Below are positions 9,624 through 26,146 of a DNA stretch of 64,000 nt, one piece after another. Position 1 is the first letter of the stretch; each line of letters starts with the position of its first letter. The notes under the pieces are model-generated. The model did not search any database. It was not told the DNA's origin and worked only from the letters and a program-made list of their open reading frames with translations. A program made the translations under genes and the position numbers. Location: NCBI GenBank assembly GCA_034522055.1, contig JAXHLS010000006.1, positions 962,790-1,026,789 of the forward strand. The letters are read 5' to 3'. This stretch comes from Gammaproteobacteria bacterium (GTDB lineage: Bacteria > Pseudomonadota > Gammaproteobacteria > JAABTG01).

Positions 9624-10287
9624 CCTGCCGTCCCCGTTCTTCGCCCATGATGTGGGCCACCGCCTCGGCCACCCGGCGCTCGATGGTGGCATCCACCTGG
9701 GAGGACTCGCTGGCGACCCGGCATCCGCCACGGGTGATCATGGGTTTCTCCACCACGGTCCATGCCGACTCCCCGTCGCCCACGCCCACGGTCTCGCGCA
9801 CCAGCGCGGCATCCTCCGGATGGAGGTGGATCTCCACCCGGGGCGTCACCTCGGGCAGGGCGGCCACCGCCTCCCGCACCACGGCGATCACCTGCTCGGG
9901 GTCGGTGCGCAGTTCCCGCCGAATGATGTGACGAGCCACGCTCACGGCCAGTTCCACCAGGGTCTCCACCACACGCTCGTCCAATTCGGCGTAGGGCTGG
10001 GACATGCCGTCGAGGAGGGCCTTCAAACGTTTGGTCACATCGGCGTTGCGTTGCTCGGCACGGCGCAGGCCCTCCTGGCGTCCCTGGGCCTCGCCCTCGG
10101 CATGGCCCTGGCGGAAGGCCTCCTCGCGCACCTGCTTTTCGAGTTGCTCGATGTCCCCCGCGGTTGGGGGACGCGGGCGATTGCCCCCGCCGCCCGCCTT
10201 CGCCTTGCCGGCCCCGCCCACCTCGGGCAGCTCCCAGGACCGAAAGCGACCCGCGCCGTCGGATATGACACGTCCGCCGCTCGCCAT
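9604..10287 (-). CDS. fliH: Flagellar assembly protein FliH
   Basis: 227 aa with a FliH-like charged central region ([26 protein letters not shown]); position between fliG and fliI. Confidence 0.75.
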
Positions 10288-10296
10288 GGGCCGTCT

Positions 10297-11316
10297 CTAG
10301 ACGAATTCGTCGCCGCCGGCACCGCCGAGGGCGATGGTGCCCTCGTCGGCCATGCGGCGGGCGATGCCCAGGATTTCCTTCTGGGCCGCCTCGACCTCGC
10401 TGAGGCGCACCGGGCCCTTGGCTTCGAGGTCGTCCCGCAGCATCTCCGATGCACGCTTGGACATGTTCTTGAAGAACTTCTCGCGCAGTGACTCGTCCGT
10501 GCCCTTGAGGGCGATGAGCAGGGTGTCCGAGGAGATCTCCCGCAACAGGGCCTGGACGCCGGTATCGTCCACATCCATCAGGTTCTCGAACACGAACATC
10601 AGGTCCTCGATCTGCTGGCTGAGGTCCGCATCAACCTCCTTGACGTGTTCCATGATCTCCTGTTCCGAGGCGGTCTCCACGAAGTTGAGGATCTCGGCTG
10701 CGGCACGCGCACCGCCCACCGAGGAGGCCTTGACGTTGGAACCCGAGACCTGGGCCTCAAGGATCTGGTTGAGTTCATTGAGGGCCTGGGGCTGCACCGT
10801 ATCCAGGGTGGCGACGCGCAGCATCAGATCCGGACGGGTGCGTTCGGGCAGGTACGACATCACCTCCGCCGACTGGTCGGCGTCGAGGAAGGCGAGCACG
10901 ATGGCAATGATCTGGGGATGCTCGTTGCGGACCATGTCCGCGATGCCCCGCGGGTCCATCCATTTCAGGGTATCGAGACCGTTGGCCGAACCGCCGACGA
11001 GGATCCGATCCATGAGGCCGCTGGCCTTCTCGTCGCCCACCGCCCGCACCAGCATGTTGCGGATATAGCTCTCCTGGTCGACGCCGAGGGAGGTATGGGT
11101 GCCCAGGGCATCCACGAACTCCTGCATCACCCGCTTCACCTGGGCCTGGGTGATGCCCGCCACCTCCGACATGGCGGAACCCACCTTCTGCACGTCCTTC
11201 GGGCCCAGATGCCGCAGCACCTCGGCGGCCCCTTCCTCGCCGATGCTGAGCAGCAGCACGGCAGCCTGCTGGGGGCCGGTGAGGCCCTTTTCCGTGATAT
11301 TATTGTTCTCAGCCAT
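10297..11316 (-). CDS. fliG: Flagellar motor switch protein FliG
   Basis: FliG motifs (AAVLLLSIGEEGAAEVLRHLGPKDVQKV, MFVFENLMDVDDTGVQALLRE); start at MAENNNITEKG. Confidence 0.85.
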   Translation of the reverse strand: MAENNNITEKGLTGPQQAAVLLLSIGEEGAAEVLRHLGPKDVQKVGSAMSEVAGITQAQVKRVMQEFVDALGTHTSLGVDQESYIRNMLVRAVGDEKASGLMDRILVGGSANGLDTLKWMDPRGIADMVRNEHPQIIAIVLAFLDADQSAEVMSYLPERTRPDLMLRVATLDTVQPQALNELNQILEAQVSGSNVKASSVGGARAAAEILNFVETASEQEIMEHVKEVDADLSQQIEDLMFVFENLMDVDDTGVQALLREISSDTLLIALKGTDESLREKFFKNMSKRASEMLRDDLEAKGPVRLSEVEAAQKEILGIARRMADEGTIALGGAGGDEFV

Positions 11317-12985
11317 CGGCATTCACCCAATCTCTGACCACCTGCGCCACCCGTTTCGGATCGTCCTGGACCAGCTTCCTCACCACCTCCAGACGGCGCT
11401 CGTGGGTGGCCGTATCCGGTAACTGTAGCACCTCGTCGTCGCCCTCCACCTGTCGTACGACGCCATCGTCATCCTGGCGCTGCCCGTGACCCCGCTGCGT
11501 CATGGTGGCCTCCAGCTTGGCTTGCATGTCACGCAGCTCCGCATCCGCGCCCGTGAGACGGCGCATGGCCGGACGCAGCACCCCGAGGATCAGGAACAAC
11601 ACCAGCAGCACACCCAGTACCTGCTTGGACAAGGTGAGGACCCAGGATTGTTCCCACAGCGGCTGTGCCTCCACGGGTGGGGCGGGCAGGGGCTCGGTGA
11701 AGGAGACGTTGGTCACCTGCACCCTATCGCCCCGTGCCTGGGTGAAACCGATGGCCTCCTTCACCAGGGTCTCGATGCGGGCCGTCTCCTCGGGCGTCAG
11801 GGCCTGCCGCTGCACGGTGCCGTCGGCGGCCGCCGTGCGATGGTCATCCACCACCACCGCCACCGACAGCCGCCGCAGCACGGCGCTCGGCATCACCGTG
11901 TGACGGATGGTCTTGTCGAGTTCGAAGTTCCGCGTGGAGCGGCGCCGCGACGACTCGCCGGCGCCCCCCGCGGCACCCTCGACGCCCGCCGCCTGCTCGG
12001 GGGCCGCGCCGGCGCCGGGCGGCTGATTGGCGAGAGCCCCCGGGATCCCGGCCGCCCCCGCCGCGCCCTGCTCCTCCAGCACCTGCTCGCTGCGCAGGGC
12101 CGGCAGATCCGGATTGTAGATCTCGCGCGTCTGCTCGGTGCGGGTGAAATCGACATCCGCCGACACCTGGGCCTCGAGGCCGTCCAGCCCCACCACGGGC
12201 CTGAGGATATCCTGGATGCGACGCACGTAGCCCTGCTCGAGCTTGTTGACGTAGTCCAGCTGATCGGAACTCATGGCGAGGGCGGAATCCGCCTCGGGCC
12301 GGGTCAGCAGGCGACCCCGCTGGTCCACCACCTTGACGTTGCCGGGTTCCATCCGCGGCACCGCCGCCGCCACCATGTGGGCGACGGCACTCACCTGCCC
12401 CTCCCCCAGTTTGCCCATGCCGGTCAGGGTCAGGAGCACGGAGGCCGTAGGCGGCCTGCGCTCCCGCACGAAGGCGGACTCGCGGGGCTGGGCCAGGTGG
12501 ACCCGGGCGCTGCGCACCCCGTTGACGGTGCTGATGGAACGCCCCAGTTCCACCTCCAGGGCGCGCTGGAAGCGCGCCCGCTCCACGAACTGGCTGGTGC
12601 CGAAGCTCTGCTCCTCTTGAAGGATCTCGAAGCCCATGTCCCCGCCGCCGGGCAGATTCTGGGCCGCCAGGCGGAAGCGCACGTCGTAGACCTTGTCGGC
12701 CGGCACCATGATGGAGTTATTGCGCTCATCCAGACGGTAGGGCACGCCGGTGGCATCCAGGGCCTCCAGCACCTCGCTGGCCGCCCCCGGTGACAAGCCC
12801 CCGTAGAGCAGGGCGTAATCGGCCTTGGCGGTCCACAGGGCGATGGAGACCCCGAGGGCGATGGTGGCCGCCAGGGCCACCAACAGGCCCATCTGACGCA
12901 GCGCCGAGAGCCCCAGCAGACCCCGCCAGGCATTGGGGTTGCCCACCGGCGACGGCAATGCCTGGGTACCTTGAACCTCCGCCAT
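11309..12985 (-). CDS. fliF: Flagellar MS-ring protein FliF
   Basis: 558 aa with an N-terminal TM segment, a YscJ/FliF domain (VPADKVYDVRFRLAAQNLP) and a C-terminal TM segment; overlaps the fliG start. Confidence 0.85.
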   Translation of the reverse strand: MAEVQGTQALPSPVGNPNAWRGLLGLSALRQMGLLVALAATIALGVSIALWTAKADYALLYGGLSPGAASEVLEALDATGVPYRLDERNNSIMVPADKVYDVRFRLAAQNLPGGGDMGFEILQEEQSFGTSQFVERARFQRALEVELGRSISTVNGVRSARVHLAQPRESAFVRERRPPTASVLLTLTGMGKLGEGQVSAVAHMVAAAVPRMEPGNVKVVDQRGRLLTRPEADSALAMSSDQLDYVNKLEQGYVRRIQDILRPVVGLDGLEAQVSADVDFTRTEQTREIYNPDLPALRSEQVLEEQGAAGAAGIPGALANQPPGAGAAPEQAAGVEGAAGGAGESSRRRSTRNFELDKTIRHTVMPSAVLRRLSVAVVVDDHRTAAADGTVQRQALTPEETARIETLVKEAIGFTQARGDRVQVTNVSFTEPLPAPPVEAQPLWEQSWVLTLSKQVLGVLLVLFLILGVLRPAMRRLTGADAELRDMQAKLEATMTQRGHGQRQDDDGVVRQVEGDDEVLQLPDTATHERRLEVVRKLVQDDPKRVAQVVRDWVNADG

Positions 12986-13021
12986 ATCAATGTCTCCGGC
13001 GATGTCGCGCGTTCATGGTCA

Positions 13022-13351
13022 TCAGATGCGCATGTTGCTGATGTCCTGGTAGGCCTGCACCAGGCGGTTTCTCACCTGGAGCAGGCCCTGGAAGGAGATG
13101 CTGGACTTCTGCACGGCGATCATGACCTCCGCCAGCTCGACGTTGGGATCCCCCTGCTCGAACGCGGCGGTCAACGCCTTGGCCTCCTGGGCCCGCCCGT
13201 TGACGCTGTCGAGCGACTGCTTGAGCAGCGCATTGAAATCCGCGCCTCCGGCCTTGTCGCCAGACTCGCCGGCGGCGGGCGCCTGGGCCTGCGCGGCCAT
13301 CGCCCGCATCTGGGCCAGCACGTTGTCGATCCCGCTGGTATCCACTTTCAT
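13022..13351 (-). CDS. fliE: Flagellar hook-basal body protein FliE
   Basis: 109 aa with FliE C-terminal signature (EVMIAVQKSSISFQGLLQVRNRLVQAYQDI). Confidence 0.8.
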   Translation of the reverse strand: MKVDTSGIDNVLAQMRAMAAQAQAPAAGESGDKAGGADFNALLKQSLDSVNGRAQEAKALTAAFEQGDPNVELAEVMIAVQKSSISFQGLLQVRNRLVQAYQDISNMRI

Positions 13352-13379
13352 GTCCCATACCTCTTCATCGTTTCAAAGG

Positions 13380-13580
13380 TGGGTCCGCTGCGCTCGACCC
13401 ACCCTACGTAAGCTGAGCGCTGGCGCGAAACCCCGCGTAGGGTGGAACAAGCGCAGCGGTTCCACCGCTCCGGGCCCCGGGCATCGCCCCGGCGGCCGCG
13501 ATGGGTCCGCTGCGCTTGATCCGCCCTACGTAACCCGGACTGCGGCGCGCGACCCAGCGTCGGGTGAAACGAGCGCCTCG
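13380..13580. repeat. Tandem duplication of a ~95-bp unit in the fleR-fliE intergenic region
   Basis: Unit 1 (GGGTCCGCTGCGCTCGACCCACCCTACGTAAGCTGAGCGCTGGCGCGAAACC...TGGAACAAGCGCAGCGGTTCCACCG) and unit 2 (GGGTCCGCTGCGCTTGATCCGCCCTACGTAACCCGGACTGCGGCGCGCGACC...TGAAACGAGCGCCTCGCTTCCACCG) are ~75% identical. Confidence 0.7.
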
Positions 13581-13590
13581 CTTCCACCGG

Positions 13591-14943
13591 CTACTCCGCC
13601 ACCGCCATGCCGGCCTCACGGAGCTTCTGCAGCTTGTAGCGCAGAGTCCTGGGGCTGATGCCGAGCAGCTTCGCGGCATTCTTCTTGCTGCCGTTACCGC
13701 GCTGCAAAGCGTCCATGATCAACTCCCGCTCCTTGTCCCGCAGATCCATCCCCAGGGGGGTCTCGGCGTCCTGCTCCATGGCCGGCGCCAGGGCTGCCGG
13801 GTGCTGCGGCCGGGGCGCCTGAAAATGCAGATCATGGAGGTCGATATCGCCACTGCCGTTGAGGATCAGGGCGCGTTGGATGACGTTGGCCAGCTCCCGC
13901 ACGTTACCCGGCCAGTGATAGGCCACCAGGGCATCCCGGGCCGCCTCGCCGAGGCGAGGCGTCTCGCCCGTCCCGCCATGGAGCCGCAGCAGATGCGCAG
14001 CGAGGGCGACGATATCCCCCGGGCGCTCGCGCAGGGGCGGGATGTGCAGGGGAAAGACATTGAGGCGATAGTAGAGGTCCTCGCGGAACGTACCCTCGCG
14101 CACCAGCTCCGCCATATCACGATTGGAGGTAGCCAGCACCCGCACGTCCAGGGGGATCATGCGCTGGCTGCCCAGGCGCTCCACCTCCCGTTCCTGAAGC
14201 ACCCGCAGCAGCTTGGCCTGCAGGCCCAGCGGCATCTCAGAGACCTCGTCCAGCAACAACGTACCGCCGTGGGCCTGCTCGAACTTGCCGGGCGCCGCCT
14301 TGTAGGCCCCGGTGAAGGCCCCTTTCTCGTAGCCGAACAGCACCGCCTCCAGCATGTTCTCGGGGATGGCCGCGCAGTTGATGGCCACGAAGGGGCCGCC
14401 GGCTCGGGGCGAGTGGGCATGGAGGTAACGGGCATAGACCTCCTTGCCGGTACCGCTCTCGCCGCTGATCATCACCGTCGCCTCGCTGCCCCCCACGCGG
14501 GCGGCGAGAGCCAGGAGATCGCGGGACACGGGGTCCTCCGCCACGGGGTCGCCGGTGGCCGCGGTCTCCGCCGGCAGGTGGCTCACCACCTTGCTCACCA
14601 GCACCTCGCCCTCGAAGGGCTTCACCAGATAATCCACCGCGCCCATCTTCATGGCCTCCACCGCCTGCTGGACCGTGGCATAGGCCGTCATCAGCAGTAC
14701 TGGGGTATCGGGGGCGGCGGCGCGCACCGCCTTCAGAAAGGCCATGCCGTCCATGGGACGCATCTGGATGTCGCTCACCACCAGGCGCGGGCGCTCCTCC
14801 CTCAGCACCGCCAGGGCCTCCTCCCCGTCGCCCGCGGTGACCACGTCCAGTCCGGCCAGCCCCAGGGTCTCGGCGAGGGCGTCGCGCAGGGGTACGTCGT
14901 CCTCCACGATGAGCACGTGGGCCTCCACCTTAGCCTCCCCCAC
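13591..14943 (-). CDS. fleR: Sigma54-dependent flagellar response regulator (FleR/FlrC)
   Basis: REC domain (LIVEDD, SDIQMRPMDG), AAA+ sigma54-activator motifs ([29 protein letters not shown]-like), and a C-terminal Fis-type HTH. Confidence 0.85.
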   Translation of the reverse strand: MGEAKVEAHVLIVEDDVPLRDALAETLGLAGLDVVTAGDGEEALAVLREERPRLVVSDIQMRPMDGMAFLKAVRAAAPDTPVLLMTAYATVQQAVEAMKMGAVDYLVKPFEGEVLVSKVVSHLPAETAATGDPVAEDPVSRDLLALAARVGGSEATVMISGESGTGKEVYARYLHAHSPRAGGPFVAINCAAIPENMLEAVLFGYEKGAFTGAYKAAPGKFEQAHGGTLLLDEVSEMPLGLQAKLLRVLQEREVERLGSQRMIPLDVRVLATSNRDMAELVREGTFREDLYYRLNVFPLHIPPLRERPGDIVALAAHLLRLHGGTGETPRLGEAARDALVAYHWPGNVRELANVIQRALILNGSGDIDLHDLHFQAPRPQHPAALAPAMEQDAETPLGMDLRDKERELIMDALQRGNGSKKNAAKLLGISPRTLRYKLQKLREAGMAVAE

Positions 14944-16111
14944 CGGCGGCCGCGGGCGGTGCCTCGCGGCGGCTCACCGGCAGCGCGAGGGTGAAGCGCG
15001 CGCCCTGACCGGGCGCGGTGGCGAGGTCGATGCGCCCGCCATGGGCCTGAACCACCGCGTGGGCCACCGCCAGCCCCAGACCGGTGCCGCCGGAACGCGC
15101 GCTCACGAAGGGCTCGAAGACCCGCCGCGCCTGCTCCTCATCCATGCCCGGACCGTCATCCCCGACTTCGATGAGCAACTCGTCGCCCTCGCCCCGCAGC
15201 CGCAGCTGGATCCCGACCTCCGGACCGCCGGCCTCGACGGCGTTGTTCACCAGGTTCTGAACCACCGTGCAAAGGGCATCGGTATTGCCCTGCACGTACA
15301 GCCCGGGGGCCTCGCACCGGCAGCCGAAGCGGCCGCCCCGCTGGGCGCAGATGGCGGCGCCGGCATGCTCCAGGGCCGCGCACAGGGTCTCCGGCTCCAG
15401 TTCCACCACCTCGAACGCGCCGGTGTGGGCGAAGTCGAGCATGTCCTTGACCAGGCGCTCCATGTAACGAAGCACATCCCGCAACCTGCCGCCCAGCTGC
15501 TCGCGGCGCTCCCCGCTGACGCCGCCGCCGCTGAGGTTGCCGGCATGGAGCAGCGCGGTGGCGATGGGGGTGCGGATCTGATGAGCCAGGGATGCGGCCA
15601 TGCGGCCGATGTCCGACAACCGCCGCAAGTGGGCGATCCGGGTCTGCAACTCGCGGGTCTCGGTGACATCGTTGAACAGCAGGATCTGACCGGGTTCGCT
15701 GCCCAGGGAACAGGTGGAGATGCTGACGCGCCGGCCGTTGGCCAGGCTCACGTCATGGCCGTCGTCGGGCTGAGGCCGGAAGCCCCGCTGTACCACCTCC
15801 AGCCAGGACTGCCCGGTGAGGGCCTCCCCGAACAACGCCCGTGCCGCCGGGTTGCACTCCGCCACCCGCCCGTCGCGGTCCACCACCACCACGCCGGCGG
15901 GCAGGGACTCGATGAGCAGGGTGAGGCGGTGTGCCAGCCGTTCCTTCTCGTCCAGGTCACGGGCCCGGGCATCCCGGGCCCGAGCGAGTTCGTCGCTAAG
16001 GCTACGAACCTGGGCCTGCAAGGCCTCGTAGGCCTCCACCAGAGTACTGGAGTTCTCGTTGAACTCCTCGAAGGCCTTTGCCAGATCCACGGGTGAGGTA
16101 CCGGAGGTCAT
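14930..16111 (-). CDS. fleS: Flagellar sensor histidine kinase (FleS/FlrB) with a PAS domain
   Basis: PAS domain, HisKA (H-box ASLAHQIRTP) and HATPase_c (GLGLAVAH, DDGPGMDEE). The start is trimmed to ATG 16111 (MTSGTSPVDL); the ORF is open to 16306. Confidence 0.8.
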   Translation of the reverse strand: MTSGTSPVDLAKAFEEFNENSSTLVEAYEALQAQVRSLSDELARARDARARDLDEKERLAHRLTLLIESLPAGVVVVDRDGRVAECNPAARALFGEALTGQSWLEVVQRGFRPQPDDGHDVSLANGRRVSISTCSLGSEPGQILLFNDVTETRELQTRIAHLRRLSDIGRMAASLAHQIRTPIATALLHAGNLSGGGVSGERREQLGGRLRDVLRYMERLVKDMLDFAHTGAFEVVELEPETLCAALEHAGAAICAQRGGRFGCRCEAPGLYVQGNTDALCTVVQNLVNNAVEAGGPEVGIQLRLRGEGDELLIEVGDDGPGMDEEQARRVFEPFVSARSGGTGLGLAVAHAVVQAHGGRIDLATAPGQGARFTLALPVSRREAPPAAAGGGG

Positions 16112-16274
16112 CACCGACCCGTCACCCGTGGCGGCACGCGTGCTGGGCGCGTGCCGCGGCCCCGGTCTCGCGCCCCCGACTGATCCGCCGCTTCGACTCC
16201 ACTGACATGCCCCCCCCGGGTCCAGGAAATACCGGTCTGTTATGGCGCGGCCTCGAGCCGCACTACAGGGAGCG

Positions 16275-16293
16275 AATGCAATACCCATGCCCG
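16275..16293 (-). promoter_or_regulatory. Candidate sigma54 (-24/-12) promoter for fleSR
   Basis: The minus strand reads CGGGCATGGGTATTGCATT, with GG and GC separated by the canonical 10 nt and a TTGCA -12 box. It lies ~165 nt upstream of the fleS start. Confidence 0.4.
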
Positions 16294-16356
16294 AGCCTAG
16301 GGACATTTAAATTCATAGACTTATGGAAGACCCGGTGGTGCCCCGGGGATAAGGCG

Positions 16357-17766
16357 TCAGAAGTCCGTCACGTCTTCCGGGCGCCTGATGCCGTGCTTGC
16401 GCATCTTTTCCACCAGGGTGGTGCGCCCCAGGCCGAGACGTTTGGCCGCCCGCGCCACCACGCCATCCACCTCGTCCAGGGCCTGCTTGATGAGGGTATA
16501 TTCCAGCTGATTGATGTATTCCTTGAGGTCCAGGCCATCCGCCGGCAGGTGATGTCCAACGCCTGCCGCCACCCCCATCGCCGCCGTGCCGGCCTCGGAC
16601 TCCGGCAGATCCGGGATGTCCTCTCCGAGGTGGGCCCGGAAGCGCTCGGGAAGCTCCGGCACATCCACCACACCGTAGGGATGGAGGATGGCCAGCCGCT
16701 CGATGAGGTTGGCCAGTTCGCGCACGTTGCCCGGCCAGCCGTAGCCCATCAGCGCCCGCACCGCGCGCTCGTGCAGGCGCACCGAGCCGCGCCCCTCGGC
16801 CTCGATACGTTCCGCGAGGGTGGTGATGAGGTGGGGCAGGTCCTCGGTGCGTTCCCGCAGCGGCGGCATGTTCATGGGAAACACATTGAGCCGGTAATAA
16901 AGATCCTCGCGGAAACGGCCCGCCGCGATGCCCTGCTCCAGGTCGTTGTGGGTGGCGGCGATGATGCGCACGTCTGCCCGCAGACTCTTGTTGCTGCCCA
17001 CCCGCTCGTAACTGCGTTCCTGTAACACCCGCAACAGCTTGACCTGCATCGCCAGAGGCATATCGCCGATCTCATCCAGAAACAGGGTGCCCCCTTCGGC
17101 GATCTCGAAGCGCCCCCGCCGGGCACTGATGGCCCCGGTGAACGCCCCCTTCTCATGGCCGAAGAGTTCGCTTTCCAGCAGTTCGGCGGGAATGGCGCCG
17201 CAGTTGACCGGCACGAAGGGCCGGTGGCGGCGCGGCGACAGGGCATGGATGGTGCGCGCCGCCACCTCCTTGCCCGTACCCGACTCCCCCAGCACCAGCA
17301 CCGTGGCCTCGGACCCCGCCACCTGCTCGATCATGCGGCGGACCCCCATCATGCTGCGGCCTTCCCCCACCAGCCCGCCGCCGTCGCGGGCCTGGCCCCC
17401 TGCGGCCCGTGGCGCCTCCCGCTGGCCGCCAAGGGCCTCCTTGAGGTGTTCGAGCTTGAGGGGGAACGGCACCACCGCCACATCCGGCGAGCCCGCCGGG
17501 GCTTCCTCGACTCCGGTCACGATCACCCTGGCATCCGGAAACAAGGCCGCCAACTCCGCGAGCCCGCCTTCCCCACCCGCCACCAGGGCCCCGGGCCCGA
17601 CAAGCACCACCCCCGGCGCGGCGTCGCCCTCCACCACGACGCGCACCTCGTCGGCGCCGGGGCGCGCGCAGACCAGTACCCGGTAATCCATGAACCCGAA
17701 CACCGCTTCGATGCGCGCGCGGCACTCATCGTCCGGCTCGATCACGAGAACTGTGGGCATATGCAC
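16357..17766 (-). CDS. fleQ: Sigma54-dependent flagellar master regulator (FleQ/FlrA)
   Basis: Strong similarity to FleQ over the AAA+ domain ([14 protein letters not shown]-like [60 protein letters not shown]) and a C-terminal HTH. Confidence 0.85.
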
Positions 17767-18149: not shown

Positions 18150-18190
18150 GACACCCCACCTCGTCATGCCGGGCTTGACCCGGTATCCAG
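18150..18190. repeat. Second small REP-like palindrome family (CGTCATGCCGGGCTTGACCCGGTATCCAGGGC)
   Basis: Near-identical copy at 37045..37085 (GTCATACCGGGCCCGACCCGGTATCCAGGGGC). Confidence 0.55.
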
Positions 18191-18295
18191 GGCGGCGAGT
18201 GCCGTGGCCGGGGTGGTGCCTCTGACCCACGCGGCTGTGGCGGCCCTGGATTACGCCTTACGTCTCTGCGCTGACCCGGATCTGGAAAGGATCGG

Positions 18296-18690
18296 CTAAT
18301 CGTCCCACGGGTTGATCACGTCCATCGGCAGCGAGTAGAAATCCCGGAAGTTGCGCGTGGCCAGGCGCCCCCTGTTCACGATAGTGATGGCCGCGATCCT
18401 CCCGTCGGGCACGGCGAGGGCGGTTCCGCTTCGCGATGCCTCCCCCATGAGCTCACCGTAGACCAGTGCTGCCTGCTCGGTGAAGGCGAAGATTCGGTCC
18501 GAGAAGCGCCCACGCCAGGCGTCGAGGCCTTGCCGCAGCAACTCGGAGCGCTGGTCGGAGTGGATCTTGGCGATGCCAAACACGATTTCGCAATCGTGAC
18601 AGTGAACATGGCCAGTTCCTGGTCATGGGCGGCCAGCCAGCTGAGCACCCGCCGGCTCGGCTCTTTGCGCAGACTTTCGGAGATGACGTT
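18296..18690 (-). pseudogene. VapC-type PIN-domain toxin gene with internal frameshift
   Basis: The N-terminal PIN signature (LIFLDTNVISESLRKEPSRRVLSWLAAHDQELAMFTVTIA) and the C-terminal part (FGIAKIHSDQRSELLRQGL...NFRDFYSLPMDVINPW) are in different frames. The shift is at GCGAAATCG (~18585). There is no ATG start and no adjacent vapB. Confidence 0.5.
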
Positions 18691-18798
18691 GGTATCGAGG
18701 AAGATCAGACGAGAAGTCCCATCAAAAGGAATAAACGAGGAGGTTTGCGGGTCTCTAGGCCCATCATGCGTTCAATCAATCCCACGAGAGGCACATCC

Positions 18799-19299
18799 AT
18801 GACCCACCGTATCCACGGGAGTCTGCTGTTCGTACTGCTGTTCTTCGGCGTCGCCGTCCACGGCCAGCCGGCCGGGGTGGACCTCGAAGGCAATCCGGCG
18901 GATCTGTCCCGACACACGGGCCAGGGCAAGTGGCTGCTGGTGAAGTTCTGGGCCTCGGACTGTCACGTGTGCGCCCAGGAGGCGCCATCGGTCACTGCAT
19001 TTCACGAGCGCCACCGCGAAGACGACGCCGAGGTGCCGGCCGAGGTATTGGGCATCGCCCTGGACGGGCCGGACAATATGGCCGCGGTGCAGGCCTTCCG
19101 TGAACGTCACGGGGCCCGCTTCCCCAGCCTGGTCATGGAACCGGAGGCCGGCTGGCGACTGTTCCAGCAGCTCACCGGCCAGCCCTGGCTCGGCACCCCC
19201 TCCTACCTCATCTACGGGCCGGATGGGCAACTGCTGGCCCAGCAGGTGGGCGCGGTACCGATGGCGATGGTGGAAGACTTCATCAGTCGCAAGCCCTGA
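18799..19299 (+). CDS. TlpA/ResA-like periplasmic thiol-disulfide oxidoreductase (thioredoxin fold)
   Basis: Signal peptide (MTHRIHGSLLFVLLFFGVAVHG) and a WASDCHVCAQEAP CxxC motif. The start is chosen at ATG 18799, which has a GAGAGG RBS. Confidence 0.7.
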   Translation: MTHRIHGSLLFVLLFFGVAVHGQPAGVDLEGNPADLSRHTGQGKWLLVKFWASDCHVCAQEAPSVTAFHERHREDDAEVPAEVLGIALDGPDNMAAVQAFRERHGARFPSLVMEPEAGWRLFQQLTGQPWLGTPSYLIYGPDGQLLAQQVGAVPMAMVEDFISRKP

Positions 19300-19313
19300 C
19301 AGCAGCCACGCCA

Positions 19314-19841
19314 TCAGTCGGCGGTCGCTACCGCCACGATGGCGTAGCCGTCGCGCCGGTACTGCGCCAGCGCCCCCACCGCCTCCGCCACGGGGGTCAC
19401 TAGGGGAGTGAAACGGCGGCTGTCGTAACCGGACATCACCGCGTAACCGCCACACACCTGGATCACGACATCGTCACGATGCAGGGCCTCGACGATGGAG
19501 CGTAACTGGGGACGCCGGTTCAGATGGCCCTGCATGAAGCCGAACTGTTCCTCGCCATGGGACATCACCACCACCGGCAGGTTGGGACGCCGGGCGCGCA
19601 CCCGTGCCACCAGGGCCTCGATGCGCGGCATCACCGCCTGAAGCTGGTCGATATCCCATTCCACCACCTCGAATACGATGCCCCGGGGCTCAGGGCCCGC
19701 CAACAATTCATCCACCCGCGCCTCCGGCGACGCGGCCATGGCGGTCGCCACCCACAGCAGGGTGACGGACAACAGTGCCCATACCATGGGGAACCGCCAC
19801 GCGCCGGCCCCATGTTTCGCCGCATCACCGGCGGGCATCAC
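19314..19841 (-). CDS. Secreted DsrE/DsrF/TusD-like (YchN-fold) protein
   Basis: Signal peptide, then VVVMSHGEE...VIQVCGGYAVMSG...YRRDGYAIVAV. It is paralogous to the periplasmic domain of the anti-sigma factor at 23334..24083. An ATGA overlap with the upstream gene implies co-transcription. Confidence 0.55.
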   Translation of the reverse strand: MMPAGDAAKHGAGAWRFPMVWALLSVTLLWVATAMAASPEARVDELLAGPEPRGIVFEVVEWDIDQLQAVMPRIEALVARVRARRPNLPVVVMSHGEEQFGFMQGHLNRRPQLRSIVEALHRDDVVIQVCGGYAVMSGYDSRRFTPLVTPVAEAVGALAQYRRDGYAIVAVATAD

Positions 19842-21244
19842 TCTACCCTCAGGGCCAGTGACTTCAGCAGGGCCATGGCCGCGCCGCCGCTGGGGGGCTC
19901 GTCAACCCATGCGAGGCGACTGCTGGAGGAGTCGGGGGTGGTATCCACCAGGCGCTGGCTGTCCATGTGGTAGGCCTTCACCACGCTGGCCTGCCCGCCA
20001 TTGGCCGACAACACCAGCACCTGAAAGCGCTGGCGCGCCCGGCCGCCGTCGAAGAGACTAAAGGCCCAGCGCGGGCCGCCGCCGGCTTCGTCCCGCTCCA
20101 GGCGCCCCGCCTCGCCGTCGTAACGGGCATCGATCCAGCCGGTGCGCAGCATGTGCTGCCCCGGGTCCTGGCGCTCCACCGGGATCCCCTGGCGCTGCAG
20201 GGCCTGCAACAGGGCATCCCAGGTGGCTGCCGGCGGGGCGTAAACCAGGAGGCCGTCGGTGGACAGGGACGCTGTGGTTGCAGGCGGTGCCAGGCGGGGT
20301 TCCCGTAGCGGCGCGGGCGCCGAGCGCCCGGCGAAAGGTAGCGGCGTCGCGTTGGGAGCATTGGCGGCCACCCGCGGGGCGTCCTGGACCTGTGGACGAG
20401 GCCGCCGTGGGACCGGGGCCGAAACAGGCGTCTGGCCGTCGCCCACGGTGCGTGAAGCCTGTGGCGCCGGCCGTGGAGACTCGGCCCGCAGAGACTCGCG
20501 TCGAGCGGCAGCGACCGGCGCCGCGGCCGGTGCCGGGGCATCCAGGGTCACCCCCGGCGTCTCTGCGTCCATCACCACCGCCTCCCGGGTAGTCCCGGCG
20601 CCGGGATCCACCACTACCAGGCGGGAGGACATGGCCGCCTCCAGGGTGCCCTGGATGCGGCGCAGGAAGGCCTCCAGGGTGGCGCGGTCGGTGGGTGCCG
20701 GCGCCCACTCGAACCACGAAGTGGTGCTGTCAGGCGCCATCTCCCGTTCCACCTGGCGCTGGCGATCGGCAATGCGAATCAGGGAGGTCCCGGGGCCCTG
20801 CCCCGGCATCACCTCGAAGGCGAAGCGATGGCGCTCCCGCAGGAGATTACCGAACAGGCCGGTCTTCTGCAGCGAGGCACTGAGGCCCCGCCCCTCCCCG
20901 GCGTCCAGGCGCCACAGCACCCAATCCGTGACCAGGGTGTTGCCTTCTCCGGCAGAAGCTTTGGTCGCAATGGCCAGGCGGTCCAGGGTATCCATCAGCA
21001 GGTCCCGGGCCGCCGCCGGGGCCAGGGGCACTGCCAGGGCGGGAGCGCCATCATGGCTGACGATGCGGGTACGCGTCGTCCCGGATACCTGGTACTGGCC
21101 CTGGTCCGGCAACACCGCCATGGTTTCCCGAGCCTCGCCCCCAGCCGGCAGGGTCCCGCCGGCGGCCAGCAGCAGGAGGGCAGTCAACCATGGGCCGCTT
21201 GATCTGCGGGCCGTGTCCTTGTCTTTGTCCGTGTCTCTGGGCAT
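19838..21244 (-). CDS. Hypothetical secreted protein with a Pro/Ala-rich linker
   Basis: 468-aa ORF with an N-terminal hydrophobic segment and two globular regions separated by a low-complexity PAPA-rich stretch. No confident family assignment. Confidence 0.45.
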   Translation of the reverse strand: MPRDTDKDKDTARRSSGPWLTALLLLAAGGTLPAGGEARETMAVLPDQGQYQVSGTTRTRIVSHDGAPALAVPLAPAAARDLLMDTLDRLAIATKASAGEGNTLVTDWVLWRLDAGEGRGLSASLQKTGLFGNLLRERHRFAFEVMPGQGPGTSLIRIADRQRQVEREMAPDSTTSWFEWAPAPTDRATLEAFLRRIQGTLEAAMSSRLVVVDPGAGTTREAVVMDAETPGVTLDAPAPAAAPVAAARRESLRAESPRPAPQASRTVGDGQTPVSAPVPRRPRPQVQDAPRVAANAPNATPLPFAGRSAPAPLREPRLAPPATTASLSTDGLLVYAPPAATWDALLQALQRQGIPVERQDPGQHMLRTGWIDARYDGEAGRLERDEAGGGPRWAFSLFDGGRARQRFQVLVLSANGGQASVVKAYHMDSQRLVDTTPDSSSSRLAWVDEPPSGGAAMALLKSLALRVE

Positions 21245-21478
21245 GTCTGGGTCCCATCGCTAAAGGCGCGTCGGCGGCCTCCAGGCCGTGCCGGCACACC
21301 GGTTTTGAATTCGTCGGGTTCGCCCCCCCAGGCCAAAAACACCAAGGGCAAAAAGCCAGGGCAAAAAAACCGCCGCCCCGGCCTTGGAGGATGCCGGGAC
21401 GGCGGTGTCGGAGGTTACCCCGAAGGAACAGCGGCGGGCCACCAAGGCACGTCACGCCCGCCATGGTTCACGTCCCTG

Positions 21479-22649
21479 TCAGCGCAGGAGCACATTCTTG
21501 AATATGAAGGTCACCTGGACACCGATGCGATGGTCGATGCCATCGAGGATCTCATTGCCCACCGCCCTGGGTCCGGCTATATCGCGGTCGTTGGCATCGA
21601 AATCCCGCGCCTGGTAGGTGAAGGCCAGACGTGCCTTTTTATGGAAGAAGTACTCGCCGGTGAGGGACAGGGTATCGAACTGCACGGCGCGGGCCGGGTC
21701 GTCCTTGTTGCGGCGCAGGCGATCATAGCGGGCGTTGATAGTGGTGCGGTTCTTGAGTCCCAAGTGCTGGTGGATGTCATAGCCGAGGTCCACATACCAG
21801 CCATCGCTCTCGCCGTCCACGTTGTAGCGCACGCCATCGAGCCGCCTGAACCGGGTGGCCGAGGGAGAGATTGACGTCATCGTTGAACTCGCGATCGCCA
21901 TTCTGGTAGAAGCCATAAATCATGGCATCGTGGCGCCGCGCCCCGCGGGTGCTGTCGAAGAGCTTGGCGAAAGACAGCCAGGCATAGGTGCGCAGGTTGT
22001 CGTCACGGTTCTGGCCGCCGATGGTGTCGCCGTTGCCCAGAGCAGCCGAGTAGGTGAACTCGTAAGGGGCCGCCGGATCACCCCACTCCACCCAGTCGAA
22101 GACCTCGATGCCGATGTCCCGGGCCCCGTTCACCGAGACATCACCGGGGAAGTTGTCGTTGGCGTTGTCGAAGGTGGGCCGGTTCAAGGCGAAGGCCAGG
22201 GTGGCCTCGGGCATGAAGATATGTACCCGGCGCCCCGGCGTGGAGTGGGACAGGGCCTCGGAGGTCTGGGAGAACAGGAACTGGCCTACCCGCAAGCGCG
22301 CCCCCAGGTTGGCCAGGCCATCGTCGTCCACCCCGCGGGAGAGCTGGTTGAAGGTCACCGAGGCATCCAGCAGATGGGCGGCGCCGCCACCGCGGGTGAT
22401 GCCATTCTCGCCCCATTCCGTGAGGAAGAAGTAGTCGATGTCGTTGCTGATGGGAATCATGGTGCCGCGGATACCGAAGCGGGCACGCCGCATGAAGAAG
22501 CTCTCGTCCGAGCCGCGATCCGGCGGGATGGTCCCCGGTGTTATGTCTTCGCCGTTGAGGCCCTGCAACGGCGGCGGCCCCACACCCACGGGGATGTCGA
22601 TGGTATCCGAAAAATCCTTGGCATAGGTGGGCTGCAGGAAGCCCCACAT
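21479..22649 (-). pseudogene. Outer-membrane porin-like beta-barrel gene with an apparent internal frameshift
   Basis: Two overlapping ORFs (21777..22649 and 21479..21916) together give ~390 aa of beta-strand-rich, aromatic-rich sequence (GNGDTIGG, YNVDGESDGWYVDLGYD, VQVTFIFKNV). The frames switch near 21850-21880. No signal peptide was found on the first ORF. Confidence 0.45.
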
Positions 22650-22758
22650 CTGCAGGGTGTGAGCGATCCCGCGCCATCCCGTCTAGATAAAAGACATATC
22701 GATAAAAGGCCCGCCGGCAACGTACCGGCAGGGACCATCACGGGAGGAGAATCAATCG

Positions 22759-23337
22759 ATGAGTGGACTGCTGAAGTTCGGCCGCCGCGCGGCCCTGGAG
22801 AAGGCGGTGGAGGAGATCCGGCAACCCCTGTACGTGACGGCCTACTCCTGGTGCCAGGACGCAGCCCTGGCGGACGACATCACCCACGAGACGGTGTTGA
22901 AGGCTCTGGAGCGCCTGAACAAGCTCAAGAATCCAGACGCCTTCCGGCCGTGGATTTATAAGATTCTGCTAAACTGTTTCCGAGACCACTGGCGCAGCAC
23001 GCGCCCGTCGGTGGAATACGACGAGAACCTGGGCCGGGACCCGGGCGAGTCGGTGGAAGACAACCGCTATCGGGCGGAACTGCGCCGCAAGCTCAACCGG
23101 GGCCTCGCCAGGTTGCCCCTCGGCCAGCGCCAGGTGCTCATCCTGGTGGATCTCCAGGGGCTGTCCTATGCCGAGACCGGCGAGGTGCTGGAGATACCCA
23201 TCGGCACCGTCATGAGCCGGCTCTCAAGGGCCCGCCATACCATGAAGGGTCATCTGGCCGGCGATATGGTGGCGGGCGAAACGGTCAATGGACGAATGAA
23301 GGACGCGAGCCCGGGGAATGTCAGGAGATTTAAGTGA
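22759..23337 (+). CDS. ECF (sigma-70 family, RpoE-like) RNA polymerase sigma factor
   Basis: Sigma-2 region (ITHETVLKALERLNKL, FRPWIYKILLNCFRDHWR) and sigma-4 region (LPLGQRQVLILVDLQGLSYAETGEVLEIPIGTVMSRLSRAR). Confidence 0.85.
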   Translation: MSGLLKFGRRAALEKAVEEIRQPLYVTAYSWCQDAALADDITHETVLKALERLNKLKNPDAFRPWIYKILLNCFRDHWRSTRPSVEYDENLGRDPGESVEDNRYRAELRRKLNRGLARLPLGQRQVLILVDLQGLSYAETGEVLEIPIGTVMSRLSRARHTMKGHLAGDMVAGETVNGRMKDASPGNVRRFK

Positions 23338-24083
23338 CTGCCAGCGACGACAAAGAGAAGATCTTCTGCGACATGGAAGCGAGTCTGACGGGCGACCTCG
23401 CCCCGGAAGACCAAGTGCGTCTGCTGGAGATCCTCAGTCGCGACCCGGAGCTGGCGCGGGAGTATTGTGCCCAACGCTATGCCCGCGAGGCCCTCAAGCT
23501 GGTGTACGGCACCCCGCCGTCCCCACCCTTCGATCACCATAACGGCAAGCACGGGCAACAGAAGGCGCGCTCCCGAGGCGCCTTGTTTTCCCTGGCCACC
23601 GCCGCCGGCCTGACGCTCCTGGTGGCGGGCGGCTTCATGGGGGCATGGCTGGAATCCGCGCGCACCGGCTTCTCACCCGCCTCCTTCGAGACCGCGATGG
23701 ACGAGGCCCAGCCGCGGCTGATGAACACCGTCCTCAATATCTCCACTGACGACGAGGCGGAAGTGCATGAGTTGTTGCTACGGGTGGACGATCTCATGGG
23801 TCGCTCCACGGAGGCCGGGGTGCCGGTGAAGGTGGAGATCGTATTCCACGGCAGCGGCCTGAATCTGGTGCGAAAGGATCATCCCGACCAGGCCCGGCCC
23901 CTGCTCGCCATGATGCGCAACCATCCCAACCTGAAGCTCTACGCCTGCAACCGCACCCGCGCCCGCATGGAGCGAAACCAGGGCAGCATCGAACTCATAT
24001 CACCGGTGCAGGTGGTGAGCCCGGGGGCCCTGGAGTTCGTCATGAAACGGGTCCAGGCCGGCTGGCAGCACTTCAGCACCTGA
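23334..24083 (+). CDS. Membrane anti-sigma factor with a periplasmic DsrE/TusD-like sensor domain
   Basis: ATGA overlap with the sigma gene. N-terminal anti-sigma helix region, one TM segment (LFSLATAAGLTLLVAGGFMGAWL), and a C-terminal domain (VEIVFHGSGLNL...KLYACNRTRARMERNQ...ISPVQVVSPGALEF) aligned to the DsrE-like protein at 19314..19841, with a conserved Cys. Confidence 0.6.
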   Translation: MTASDDKEKIFCDMEASLTGDLAPEDQVRLLEILSRDPELAREYCAQRYAREALKLVYGTPPSPPFDHHNGKHGQQKARSRGALFSLATAAGLTLLVAGGFMGAWLESARTGFSPASFETAMDEAQPRLMNTVLNISTDDEAEVHELLLRVDDLMGRSTEAGVPVKVEIVFHGSGLNLVRKDHPDQARPLLAMMRNHPNLKLYACNRTRARMERNQGSIELISPVQVVSPGALEFVMKRVQAGWQHFST

Positions 24084-24122
24084 AGCGTACAGCCCTTCAG
24101 ACCTTAGAAAAAGGAGAAAAAG

Positions 24123-24146
24123 GGACGGAGGAATTAACCTCCGTTC
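24123..24146. terminator. Hairpin between convergent genes (ACGGAGG-AATTAA-CCTCCGT)
   Basis: 7-bp perfect stem with a 6-nt loop in an AT-rich stretch between the anti-sigma gene and the cytochrome gene. There is no clear U-tract. Confidence 0.3.
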
Positions 24147-24273
24147 GGCTAGCCCCCGGGGCCACGGAGTATTGAACAGGCCACCTATACAACGAAAAAC
24201 AATAAGCTGAAGCTTTCTTGGCGTTCTTCGAGAGAGCCTGTTGTTCGTCGCGGCAAAACCAAACCGCAAAGTA

Positions 24274-24912
24274 TCAGGGACGAAGGCCGAGGTCACGCTT
24301 CAGTTGTATCTCCACCGTTTCCCAGATGAGGGAGCGGCCGTGGCAGGCACGGCAGATCTCCAGGGTGGGTTCCCTGGCCATGAAGGACGTGCCCGCCGCA
24401 GGTTTCTGATCGTGGACCACGTGGCATTCGGTGCAGCCGATCACCCGGTCCATCACTTGCATCTCACCATGCCCCCACGATGAGTGAAAGGACTGGAACG
24501 GCGCCTTTTTGGCCACATCGGCGTGGCAGCGGTTGCAGAAATGATCGGGAATGGGCACCCGCATCTCGTCCGGTTCGCGGAAGTCGCCGAAAAAGTACTG
24601 GAAGGTATTGCGGGCGGCGTGGCTCATGATGATCAACCGTTCCCGCCAATCGGCACCATGGTGGCAATCCGGGCAGCGCAGCCGCTCCTCCTCCGGCTGG
24701 TGATAATGAAGCCCAGCCAGGCTCTGGGGCGGCTCGGCCACCGTGGTGGCCATCTTGGGTCCGTGCAAGGGCCCGCCGTCGGGCAGGTGACAGGAATGAC
24801 AGAAGCCCTCGCCATGGATGCGGTGGTCGAGGGCCCAACCACCACCGAGGGTCCCGACAACCGCCACCATCAGGATCAGGGCCACGAGTCCCGTTCCCCT
24901 GCTCATCAGCAA
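24274..24912 (-). CDS. Membrane-anchored multiheme cytochrome c, NapC/NirT/NrfH family (five CxxCH)
   Basis: N-terminal TM helix, then heme motifs CHSCH, CPDCH, CNRCH, CTECH and CRACH. Confidence 0.75.
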   Translation of the reverse strand: MLMSRGTGLVALILMVAVVGTLGGGWALDHRIHGEGFCHSCHLPDGGPLHGPKMATTVAEPPQSLAGLHYHQPEEERLRCPDCHHGADWRERLIIMSHAARNTFQYFFGDFREPDEMRVPIPDHFCNRCHADVAKKAPFQSFHSSWGHGEMQVMDRVIGCTECHVVHDQKPAAGTSFMAREPTLEICRACHGRSLIWETVEIQLKRDLGLRP

Positions 24913-24940: not shown

Positions 24941-26146
24941 TTACACCAGTCCACGGGTCCTCCTCAGCAACAGCGGCATGGTCGGCGCCTGCACGAACAG
25001 GGTGAACAGCACCACGCCGTAGGCTATGGCCTGGACGGTGTACCACCACGGGTGCTCCAGGGGAATGGACAGGGCCAGGGCAATGGTGATCGCGCCGCGC
25101 AACCCACCCCAGTAGAGGATGGGCCGGAAGGCGGCGGGCACCGGCTCCACACCGGGCAGCAGGTTCGCCAGCGGGATCCCGGCGAACACCACCGCGCCAC
25201 GGGCCACCAGGGCGGCGCCGATGCCCATGAGCATGGCCAGCCAGCGGTCGCTGAACATGGCCACCGTGATGGTGGCCCCCATGAGCAGGAACACGGCGCC
25301 GTTGGCCAGGTACGCCATGACCTCCCAGCTCTGATGGGCCAGCCGCGACACCTCGCGCCGGGCGTTCAGACCCACCGCGGCGCAGAGCCCCGCGGCCAGC
25401 ACCGCCATCACCCCCGACAAATGCAACACTCCCTCCGCCAGGGCGAAGGCCAGGAATGCCCCGGAGACCGTTAGCCCGACCCGTGCCGGCGGCTCCTCCG
25501 TGACCCTGAACAACACCACCAGCAGCCCCCCCACCAGCGCCCCCACCGCCAGTCCGCCTGCGAACACCCGCAGGAATTCCAGGGTCGCAGCCGCCACCGA
25601 CACCGGGGCCCCAGCGCCGGCCGCGATCCCAAGCAACAGGGCCGCCAGCACGATGGCCGTGGCGTCATTGAACAGGCTCTCGCCATCCATCAGTACGGCG
25701 AGCCGCGGCGACACCCCCATCTTGCGAAACAGGGCGAGCACCGCCACCGGATCGGTGGCGGACAGGATGGCGCCGGCAAACAGGGCCGCCATCCAGGGAA
25801 AGCCGGGACCGATGGCGCTCCGCAACAGCAGGGCGATGACGGCGGTGGAGACCAGCAACAGCGGCACCGCCAGCACCAGGATCATGGGCAGATGGCGTTT
25901 CAGCTGCCCGACATCGAGGTTGAGTGCGGCCTCGAACACCAGGACCGGCAGGAGCACGAAGAACACGATGTCATGAACCGCATCCCAGCGCAGGCCGATG
26001 TCTCCGCCCAGGCCCGTAACCACTTCCGAGGCCACGAAGCCCACCACCACCAGACCCGCGCTCCAGGGGATGCGCAGGCGCGCGAACACGCCCTCCAGGG
26101 CGATGCCCATGACCAGGGTCGCCGTGATGAAGAGCAGCAGATTCAT
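24941..26146 (-). CDS. Na+/H+ (cation:proton) antiporter, CPA1/NhaP type
   Basis: 401 aa with ~11 TM segments and the conserved ATDPVAVLALF motif. Confidence 0.75.
   Translation of the reverse strand: MNLLLFITATLVMGIALEGVFARLRIPWSAGLVVVGFVASEVVTGLGGDIGLRWDAVHDIVFFVLLPVLVFEAALNLDVGQLKRHLPMILVLAVPLLLVSTAVIALLLRSAIGPGFPWMAALFAGAILSATDPVAVLALFRKMGVSPRLAVLMDGESLFNDATAIVLAALLLGIAAGAGAPVSVAAATLEFLRVFAGGLAVGALVGGLLVVLFRVTEEPPARVGLTVSGAFLAFALAEGVLHLSGVMAVLAAGLCAAVGLNARREVSRLAHQSWEVMAYLANGAVFLLMGATITVAMFSDRWLAMLMGIGAALVARGAVVFAGIPLANLLPGVEPVPAAFRPILYWGGLRGAITIALALSIPLEHPWWYTVQAIAYGVVLFTLFVQAPTMPLLLRRTRGLV

Follow-up and report, generated by a model that had tools for sequence, protein, structure and literature searches.

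The subject of this analysis is a 64-kb stretch of DNA from a Gammaproteobacteria metagenome-assembled genome (MAG; contig JAXHLS010000006.1), referred to here as the window, and in particular a pair of overlapping genes within it that encode a sigma factor of the extracytoplasmic function (ECF) type and an anti-sigma factor with a DsrE-like domain. A prediction made from the DNA letters had proposed that this domain is a periplasmic sensor of sulfur species and that the genes around it share a sulfur/redox theme. The genes and features of the locus are as follows (window coordinates and strand):

18728-18754, + strand: near-match, GGAATAAACGAGGAGGTTTGCGGGTCT, to the promoter pattern of the family described below, with one mismatch, 45 nt upstream of the ATG of the TlpA-like gene
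18799-19299, + strand: TlpA/ResA-like periplasmic thiol-disulfide oxidoreductase with a CHVC motif; Pfam AhpC-TSA and Redoxin matches above cutoffs
19314-19841, - strand: p175, a secreted 175-amino-acid protein with a predicted, very divergent DsrE/MTH1491-type fold; single Cys, codon 19452-19454
19838-21244, - strand: p468, a secreted 468-amino-acid protein; its stop codon overlaps the start of p175
21479-22649, - strand: porin O/P-family gene, divergent from the sigma factor gene and an apparent pseudogene in two frames (21777-22649 and 21479-21916)
22759-23337, + strand: ECF (group 4) sigma factor, 192 amino acids; Pfam Sigma70_r2 and Sigma70_r4_2, TIGR02937
23334-24083, + strand: single-pass anti-sigma factor, 249 amino acids; its start overlaps the sigma factor stop by 4 nt
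23946-23948, + strand: codon for Cys205 of the anti-sigma factor, the sole Cys of its periplasmic domain, in an ACxxT motif (77-sequence alignment)
24274-24912, - strand: membrane-anchored, NapC/NirT-like c-type cytochrome, 212 amino acids, with five CxxCH motifs

An independent Logan assembly of run SRR26473340 is identical to the window over positions 18171-24230. The CHVC motif, the five CxxCH motifs and the overlap of p468 with p175 are as originally described; the porin gene, which had been described as divergent, is truncated and split between two frames.

The sigma factor matches Sigma70_r2 (E = 4.8e-11) and Sigma70_r4_2 (E = 1e-14), and scores 85.4 bits against TIGR02937, for which the cutoff is 42.9. 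It contains only sigma-2 and sigma-4 domains in ~190 amino acids, which places it among the ECF (group 4) sigma factors. The anti-sigma factor consists of an N-terminal anti-sigma-like region (residues ~1-60), a transmembrane helix (residues 83-106; 23580-23651) and a DsrE-like domain (residues 130-247; 23721-24074). The helix is preceded by the basic stretch KARSR, so the positive-inside rule predicts that the C-terminal half of the protein is periplasmic. The domain matches of the sigma factor, the 4-nt overlap of the two genes and the one transmembrane helix support the identification of an ECF sigma/anti-sigma pair. For the window protein alone, the N-terminal region matched only the NCBIfam entry PRK13920 ('putative anti-sigmaE'; E = 3.7e-4), with a score far below the cutoff.

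An exhaustive HMMER search with the window anti-sigma factor revealed a large family, whereas a word-seeded search returned only the protein itself, from the Gammaproteobacteria MAG. We found full-length homologues in 535 cluster representatives at E ≤ 1e-3 (181 at E ≤ 1e-10), nearly all of them 230-250 amino acids long and matching end to end. A scan of one genome per GTDB species, with a 4-sequence alignment as the query, detected relatives at 239 loci; the architecture is therefore no singular feature of this locus. The hosts at these loci are nearly all MAGs of sulfur-oxidising Gamma- and Betaproteobacteria: Acidiferrobacterales, Sulfuricaulis, Sulfurifustaceae, Ca. Muproteobacteria, Sedimenticola, Ca. 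Thiodiazotropha, Chromatiaceae, Thioalkalispiraceae, Ectothiorhodospiraceae and some Burkholderiales. Public names of family members are limited to 'hypothetical protein', 'DsrE family protein' and 'intracellular sulfur oxidation DsrE/DsrF family protein', so the anti-sigma nature of the family is unannotated. Literature searches on DsrE together with anti-sigma or ECF, on MTH1491, on COG1416, and on ECF with sulfane sulfur returned nothing relevant, with the limit that coverage of the literature was incomplete and absence is not proof; nor is there any mention of DsrE in the main text of the paper that reclassified the ECF factors. The module of sigma factor and DsrE-sensor anti-sigma factor is thus real, widespread and apparently undescribed, in agreement with the original prediction as far as the searched literature goes.

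Alignment of 77 family members clarified both ends of the anti-sigma factor. The anti-sigma N-terminal family zf-HC2 is matched by 24/77 members and RseA_N by 2/77, and the N-terminus of the family profile matches the N-terminal domains of MucA and RseA (E = 0.006-0.008). The zinc-binding anti-sigma (ZAS) redox mechanism could be rejected, since neither the window protein nor the family consensus contains HxxxCxxC; the N-terminal region of the family has one conserved Cys only (C45). In the C-terminal domain, Cys205 is the only invariant column of the whole alignment, and every one of the 77 sensor domains has exactly one Cys, so the claim of a single conserved Cys stands when checked in homologues. 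Taken together, the family comprises an ECF sigma factor and an anti-sigma factor with a putative RseA/MucA-type cytoplasmic sigma-binding region, one transmembrane helix and a periplasmic MTH1491-type domain that carries a single invariant Cys.

The assignment of the periplasmic domain to the DsrE fold, which had been proposed from inspection, is supported at several levels. The sensor domain of the window protein alone scores 20.0 bits against PF02635 (DsrE; E = 8e-4), below the gathering score of 22.7, and PF02635 is matched by 21/77 family members. The same domain alone matches MTH1491 (PDB 1L1S) at E = 5e-4, with residues 132-246 aligned to residues 6-110 of 113, and the family profile matches 1L1S (E = 1.2e-21) and ST0148 (2PD2; E = 2.2e-10) over the full domain. 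By sequence, the domain is a member of the MTH1491 subgroup of the DsrE/DsrF-like superfamily (PF02635), and Cys205 aligns with the MTH1491 Cys in FCACSNT. A single-sequence AlphaFold2 model of the anti-sigma factor was unusable (predicted local distance difference test, pLDDT, 46). MTH1491 and ST0148 are archaeal, stand-alone proteins of ~110 amino acids without an anti-sigma region or transmembrane helix, whereas the domain of the family described here is periplasmic and occurs as a fusion to an anti-sigma factor or in a secreted protein that has a signal peptide. The DsrEFH/TusBCD and DsrE3A sulfur-relay proteins are cytoplasmic and unlinked to transcription factors. By contrast, the family domain has no significant sequence similarity to them (E of ~0.5) and lies C-terminal to a transmembrane helix, its partners carry signal peptides, and no DsrF, DsrH or TusA genes are adjacent. 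The sensor domain therefore lies outside the DsrEFH/TusBCD sulfur-relay complexes.

We next examined the gene neighbourhoods of the family, keeping 80 of the 239 loci and calling open reading frames (ORFs) anew. A sigma factor homologue lies immediately upstream of the anti-sigma gene in 79/82 related loci, and precomputed gene calls place the sigma gene directly upstream and overlapping in five members. A second, stand-alone DsrE-like gene of ~145-160 codons is adjacent in 76/82 loci, where it follows on the same strand after 30-60 nt or lies upstream of the sigma gene in divergent orientation; the pairing with a secreted DsrE-like paralogue, which had been noticed in the window, is thus family-wide. 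These partner proteins have a signal-peptide-like N-terminus and, in 78/80 cases, a single Cys within a conserved F.VC.NT motif. In a neighbour-joining tree, 82/83 sensor domains form one clade, which indicates that the fusion arose once, and the partners form separate clades that track gene arrangement, which indicates that they are paralogues of long standing and not products of recent duplication. In seven distinct loci the divergent partner is followed by a porin O/P gene, and at locus L073 this gene lies upstream of the partner on the opposite strand. No other gene family recurs in the neighbourhoods beyond clade-specific synteny; the DsrF, DsrH and TusA families do not recur there either.

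The family also has a conserved promoter. The hexamer GGAATA is present in the first 150 nt upstream of the sigma gene in 69/72 loci and in the next 150 nt in only 1/72. The longer pattern GGAAT-N16/17-CGTC is present upstream of the sigma gene in 68/71 homologous loci, with the consensus GGAATAAA-N13-GCGTCT. It agrees with the autoregulatory promoter type of ECF factors (GAA in the -35, CGT in the -10), a feature that is typical of them without being strictly defining. Every divergent locus has a second copy on the opposite strand before the dsrE-like (and porin) genes; the porin gene of L073 has a separate copy; and several loci carry one more copy, within the 3' end of the anti-sigma gene, that faces the downstream dsrE-like gene. 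These placements predict a conserved output for the sigma factor that consists of its own operon and the secreted paralogue, joined in some lineages by an anion porin.

The arrangement resembles that of RseA and MucA with sigma-E and AlgU in several respects: an ECF gene is followed by an overlapping anti-sigma gene, the anti-sigma factor has one transmembrane helix and a weakly similar N-terminal region, the co-encoded secreted protein could modulate the periplasmic domain in the manner of RseB/MucB, and the operon is predicted, at the family level, to be autoregulated from an ECF-type promoter. It differs in its periplasmic part, where a folded DsrE/MTH1491-type domain that carries an invariant Cys takes the place of the RseA periplasmic tail; in its secreted partner, which is paralogous to the sensor domain and not RseB-like; and in the predicted regulon, which is tiny (the pair, the paralogue and sometimes the porin).

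Several further features were seen in subsets of the related loci. In ~25 loci, mostly from Chromatiaceae and Sedimenticolaceae (including L039, L041-L047, L049, L050, L062, L063, L072, L077, L084, L086, L089 and L090), the -10 CGTC ends only ~10 nt before the sigma ATG, suggesting that the autoregulated sigma mRNA is leaderless or nearly so. In two MAGs (L042 14359-14904 and L045 14373-14919), a further exact promoter copy ~6 kb away precedes a gene for a ~100-amino-acid secreted Ala/Lys-rich protein ending in GNPGYLYN, which may there be an additional member of the regulon. In 17 loci (e.g. L004 9362-10653), a second pair, of an ECF sigma factor and a DUF3379 anti-sigma factor, lies directly downstream of the operon of sigma, DsrE-type anti-sigma and dsrE-like genes, which hints at a sigma cascade or paired regulation. 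Lastly, a stand-alone DsrE-like protein of Tomitella cavernea (Actinomycetota; L092 8001-8357) matches the sensor-domain profile at E = 5e-19; the ORF has only 119 codons and so cannot hold an anti-sigma region, and the protein may be a useful outgroup for dating the fusion.

The explanation that we favour builds on this architecture. The sensor's free periplasmic Cys, acting by itself or together with the secreted paralogue in a hetero-oligomer or sulfur relay, would react with a periplasmic sulfur species, for which polysulfide or other sulfane sulfur, thiosulfate and tetrathionate are candidates. The modified or re-associated domain would then inactivate the anti-sigma factor, most likely by regulated proteolysis as for RseA, and the freed sigma factor would raise expression of its own gene, of the secreted DsrE-like protein and of the anion porin. 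The result would be a self-contained feedback loop handling periplasmic sulfur, in which the paralogue could be a sulfur donor or acceptor, a co-sensor or simply an output. We put the probability of the full explanation, which combines the family architecture, this sulfur-sensing loop and the view of the window copy as an outlier, at roughly 0.5.

There is precedent both for the chemistry and for the type of regulator. Cys residues of DsrE3A and TusA are reported to react with tetrathionate to give Cys-S-thiosulfonates (PMC4175335). Functionally, the nearest parallel in which ECF sigma factors are linked to inorganic sulfur is that of the ECF26 factors RpoE1/RpoE4 of Sinorhizobium meliloti, which respond to sulfite, are autoregulated and have a very small regulon; the sulfite dehydrogenase SorT is a target, as are a cytochrome c and a pseudoazurin, and the signal was inferred to be sulfite generated inside the cell (PMC3511301). 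The likeness lies in a sigma/anti-sigma pair linked to inorganic sulfur, in autoregulation and in a small regulon for periplasmic sulfur handling; the difference is that PMC3511301 mentions no DsrE-like domain in the anti-sigma factor. The main interest of our results is at the level of the family, which represents a compact, widespread candidate for an envelope-level sensor in sulfur oxidisers, including Thiodiazotropha symbionts. Most sulfur-responsive regulators described so far are, to our knowledge, two-component systems or repressors in the cytoplasm. According to a 2023 paper on SoxR, little is known of how sulfur-oxidising bacteria sense inorganic sulfur compounds (PMC10451225). The comparative data open the module to direct testing, since they supply a defined promoter, a sensor domain with one Cys and, as the principal output predicted, a secreted paralogue that also has one Cys. 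The module would add a new type of sensor domain to the ECF anti-sigma repertoire, and it would provide a first functional context for the MTH1491/ST0148 branch, whose structures were released in 2002 and 2007.

Several points weigh against the favoured explanation. The proteolytic step is drawn by analogy with RseA. The PDB entries for MTH1491 and ST0148 are still titled hypothetical proteins, with no recorded function for the subgroup. When the sensor and partner profiles are compared with TusD/DsrE by hhalign, the best local alignment does place the invariant Cys on Cys78, but its E value of ~0.5 is not significant, so this match is only suggestive. In the window, the family promoter pattern has no exact match anywhere in the 64 kb, including upstream of the sigma gene, so the window copy may not signal at all. 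The window anti-sigma factor also keeps the Cys but lacks D19, H135 and Y246, which are conserved in 72-76 of the 76 other members.

The window copy is an atypical outlier without the canonical promoter, an adjacent paralogue or an intact porin. The one promoter-like match with a single mismatch in the window, GGAATAAACGAGGAGGTTTGCGGGTCT, has a perfect -35 and reads GGTCT instead of CGTCT at the -10; since 0.40 such matches are expected by chance per window, it is only suggestive. The anti-sigma factor scores 196 bits against the family profile, compared with 214-298 bits for typical members. The sigma factor retains 37/48 family-conserved positions, including the whole region-4.2 helix PIGTVMSRLxRAR, and departs from the family in the DDLVQET segment, where it reads DDITHET. 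The two porin pieces align to residues 47-304 and 351-447 of an intact 447-amino-acid Porin_O_P protein at locus L002 (E = 2e-35 and 1e-17), although a Pfam search of the fragments gave no match (Porin O/P is PF07396). The window porin thus lacks the first ~46 residues, including the signal peptide, and has a stop 13 codons upstream of its first Met; the Logan assembly calls the same porin split in two frames. The gap between porin and sigma genes is 110 bp in the window versus ~1.1 kb in porin-type loci such as L002, where this interval contains the dsrE-like gene and both promoters. A six-frame hidden Markov model search detected no remnant of a dsrE-like gene between the porin and sigma genes, the only matches being to the sensor domain and to p175 (E = 0.003). 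The layout could be explained by a deletion that took out the partner gene together with the 5' end of the porin gene and the promoter region. The window copy may be decaying, or it may have been rewired to p175, the remote DsrE-fold protein, and to the TlpA-like gene.

The canonical secreted paralogue is not adjacent in the window. The original prediction held that p175 and the sensor domain align over their whole length. Pairwise, they do not do so significantly (BLASTP E = 0.11; shuffle z of ~1). At the profile level, hhalign matched p175 and its one homologue to the sensor-domain profile with P = 1.8e-4 over 120 columns, with the Cys residues aligned. An AlphaFold2 model built from two p175 sequences only, and so unbiased by DsrE sequences, reached a pLDDT of 72.7 and a predicted template-modelling score (pTM) of 0.70, and the modelled structure has the DsrE-type alpha/beta fold. 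The hhalign match and the model together indicate that p175 is, as had been guessed, a secreted protein of the DsrE fold whose single Cys follows the central strand. In the tree, p175 is distant from both the sensor and the canonical partner clades. Its single known homologue, found by word-seeded search, is 79% identical and is flanked by the C-terminus of p468 and a TlpA-like gene. A role for p175 as a non-canonical partner of the sensor is possible.

That the window copy is a decaying relic is plausible, at somewhat less than even odds. It would have lost the dsrE-like gene, the first ~46 porin codons and the shared promoter region by deletion, after which the porin would have been frameshifted and the sigma and anti-sigma genes would have drifted without a regulon. 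The damaged porin, the shortened 110-bp gap, the missing exact promoter, the low profile score of the anti-sigma factor and the loss of its three conserved residues are all consistent with decay. However, the sigma and anti-sigma ORFs are both intact, with G+C contents at third codon positions of 0.80-0.84 that are typical of the coding sequence of this genome; neither the invariant Cys nor the region-4.2 helix of the sigma factor has been lost; a remote DsrE-fold protein persists 3.5 kb away; and a near-consensus promoter precedes the TlpA-like gene. Decay would concern the window copy only and is compatible with the favoured explanation at the level of the family.

The favoured explanation has a more specific form, on which we are doubtful: the paralogue would acquire sulfur in sulfane or thiosulfonate form, perhaps from anions that enter through the co-regulated porin, and would pass it to the sensor Cys, whose persulfidation would release the sigma factor. 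If true, this relay would be a sulfur-transfer analogue of a phosphorelay and, for chemolithotrophic sulfur oxidisers (among them the symbionts of lucinid clams), the first reduced-sulfur sensor of the extracytoplasmic kind.

Rather unlikely, in our judgement, is a sensor that responds to a protein partner without sulfur chemistry. The DsrE-like fold would then be an oligomerisation module, with the paralogue binding the sensor as RseB binds RseA; the signal would be stress on the envelope or outer-membrane proteins, or a ligand of the paralogue, and the Cys would be structural or form an intermolecular link. Such a role would suit a paralogue that is co-encoded and co-regulated in nearly all loci, and DsrE-family hetero-oligomers are represented in the PDB by DsrEFH (2HY5) and TusBCD (2D1P); the MTH1491 entries, with no function recorded, are also compatible with it. 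By contrast, the sensor (77/77) and the partner (78/80) each have a lone Cys in the oxidising periplasm, which makes a purely structural role hard to accept, and the hosts are almost exclusively sulfur oxidisers.

We give still less credence to a general periplasmic thiol-redox or oxidant sensor, in which the Cys would report disulfide or sulfenic acid formation through DsbA, O2, H2O2 or HOCl, and the output would be a protective secreted thiol protein. The single, reactive-looking Cys in both proteins would serve this purpose, and in the window a TlpA-like reductase lies nearby, behind the one near-consensus promoter. However, no TlpA homologue was found in the 80 related loci, and both the restriction to sulfur oxidisers and the co-regulated anion porin fit a sulfur anion better than a general oxidant.

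The remaining genes of the region, in which the original prediction saw a shared periplasmic redox/sulfur theme, were also considered as members of the module. Homologues of the TlpA-like protein, p468, p175 and the cytochrome were found in none of the 80 related loci, and we therefore rejected these four as members of the family module; only the porin O/P and secreted DsrE-like genes recur. No family promoter precedes p468/p175 or the cytochrome gene. For p468, the Pfam search gave only a weak NlpB/BamC-like match (residues 340-393; E = 4.6e-5, below cutoff), and its sole detected relative is a partial upstream ORF on a single 1.4-kb contig, L012, which is also the one relative that retains the synteny of p468, p175 and the TlpA-like gene. 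The p468 protein appears as two globular parts with a long Pro/Ala-rich linker between them. It lies outside the conserved module, and the TlpA-like protein is a neighbour and only a possible local target of the sigma factor. For the cytochrome, all family matches except Cytochrome_C7 are below curated cutoffs. A Na+/H+ exchanger gene (24941-26146) lies on the same strand, and the cytochrome gene starts 28 nt downstream of it and so is probably part of the exchanger operon, an unusual pairing. We consider it very improbable that 18799-24912 is one sulfur/redox island under the sigma factor, from the thioredoxin, p468 and the DsrE-like protein to the porin, the sigma/anti-sigma pair and the pentaheme cytochrome: the genes lie close together, a periplasmic redox theme runs through their annotations and the trio of p468, p175 and TlpA is syntenic in one relative, but the lack of homologues of four of these genes in the related loci, the probable exchanger operon and the missing promoters indicate that the wider island is mostly a coincidental neighbourhood.

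Beyond the Na+/H+ exchanger, the genes downstream of the region encode a DUF2799 protein and a DUF411 protein, together with an ORF that, from inspection, we take to be MtnA. Upstream of the region, on the - strand (8235-17766), is a flagellar cluster with FliI, FliG, FliF and FliE, which also encodes a histidine kinase and two regulators of the sigma-54 activator type. A 95-codon ORF (18296-18583, - strand), situated between the flagellar regulators and the TlpA-like gene, gave no Pfam match; by inspection it resembles the C-terminal part of a PIN/VapC toxin, and it may be a gene remnant that marks a point of rearrangement.

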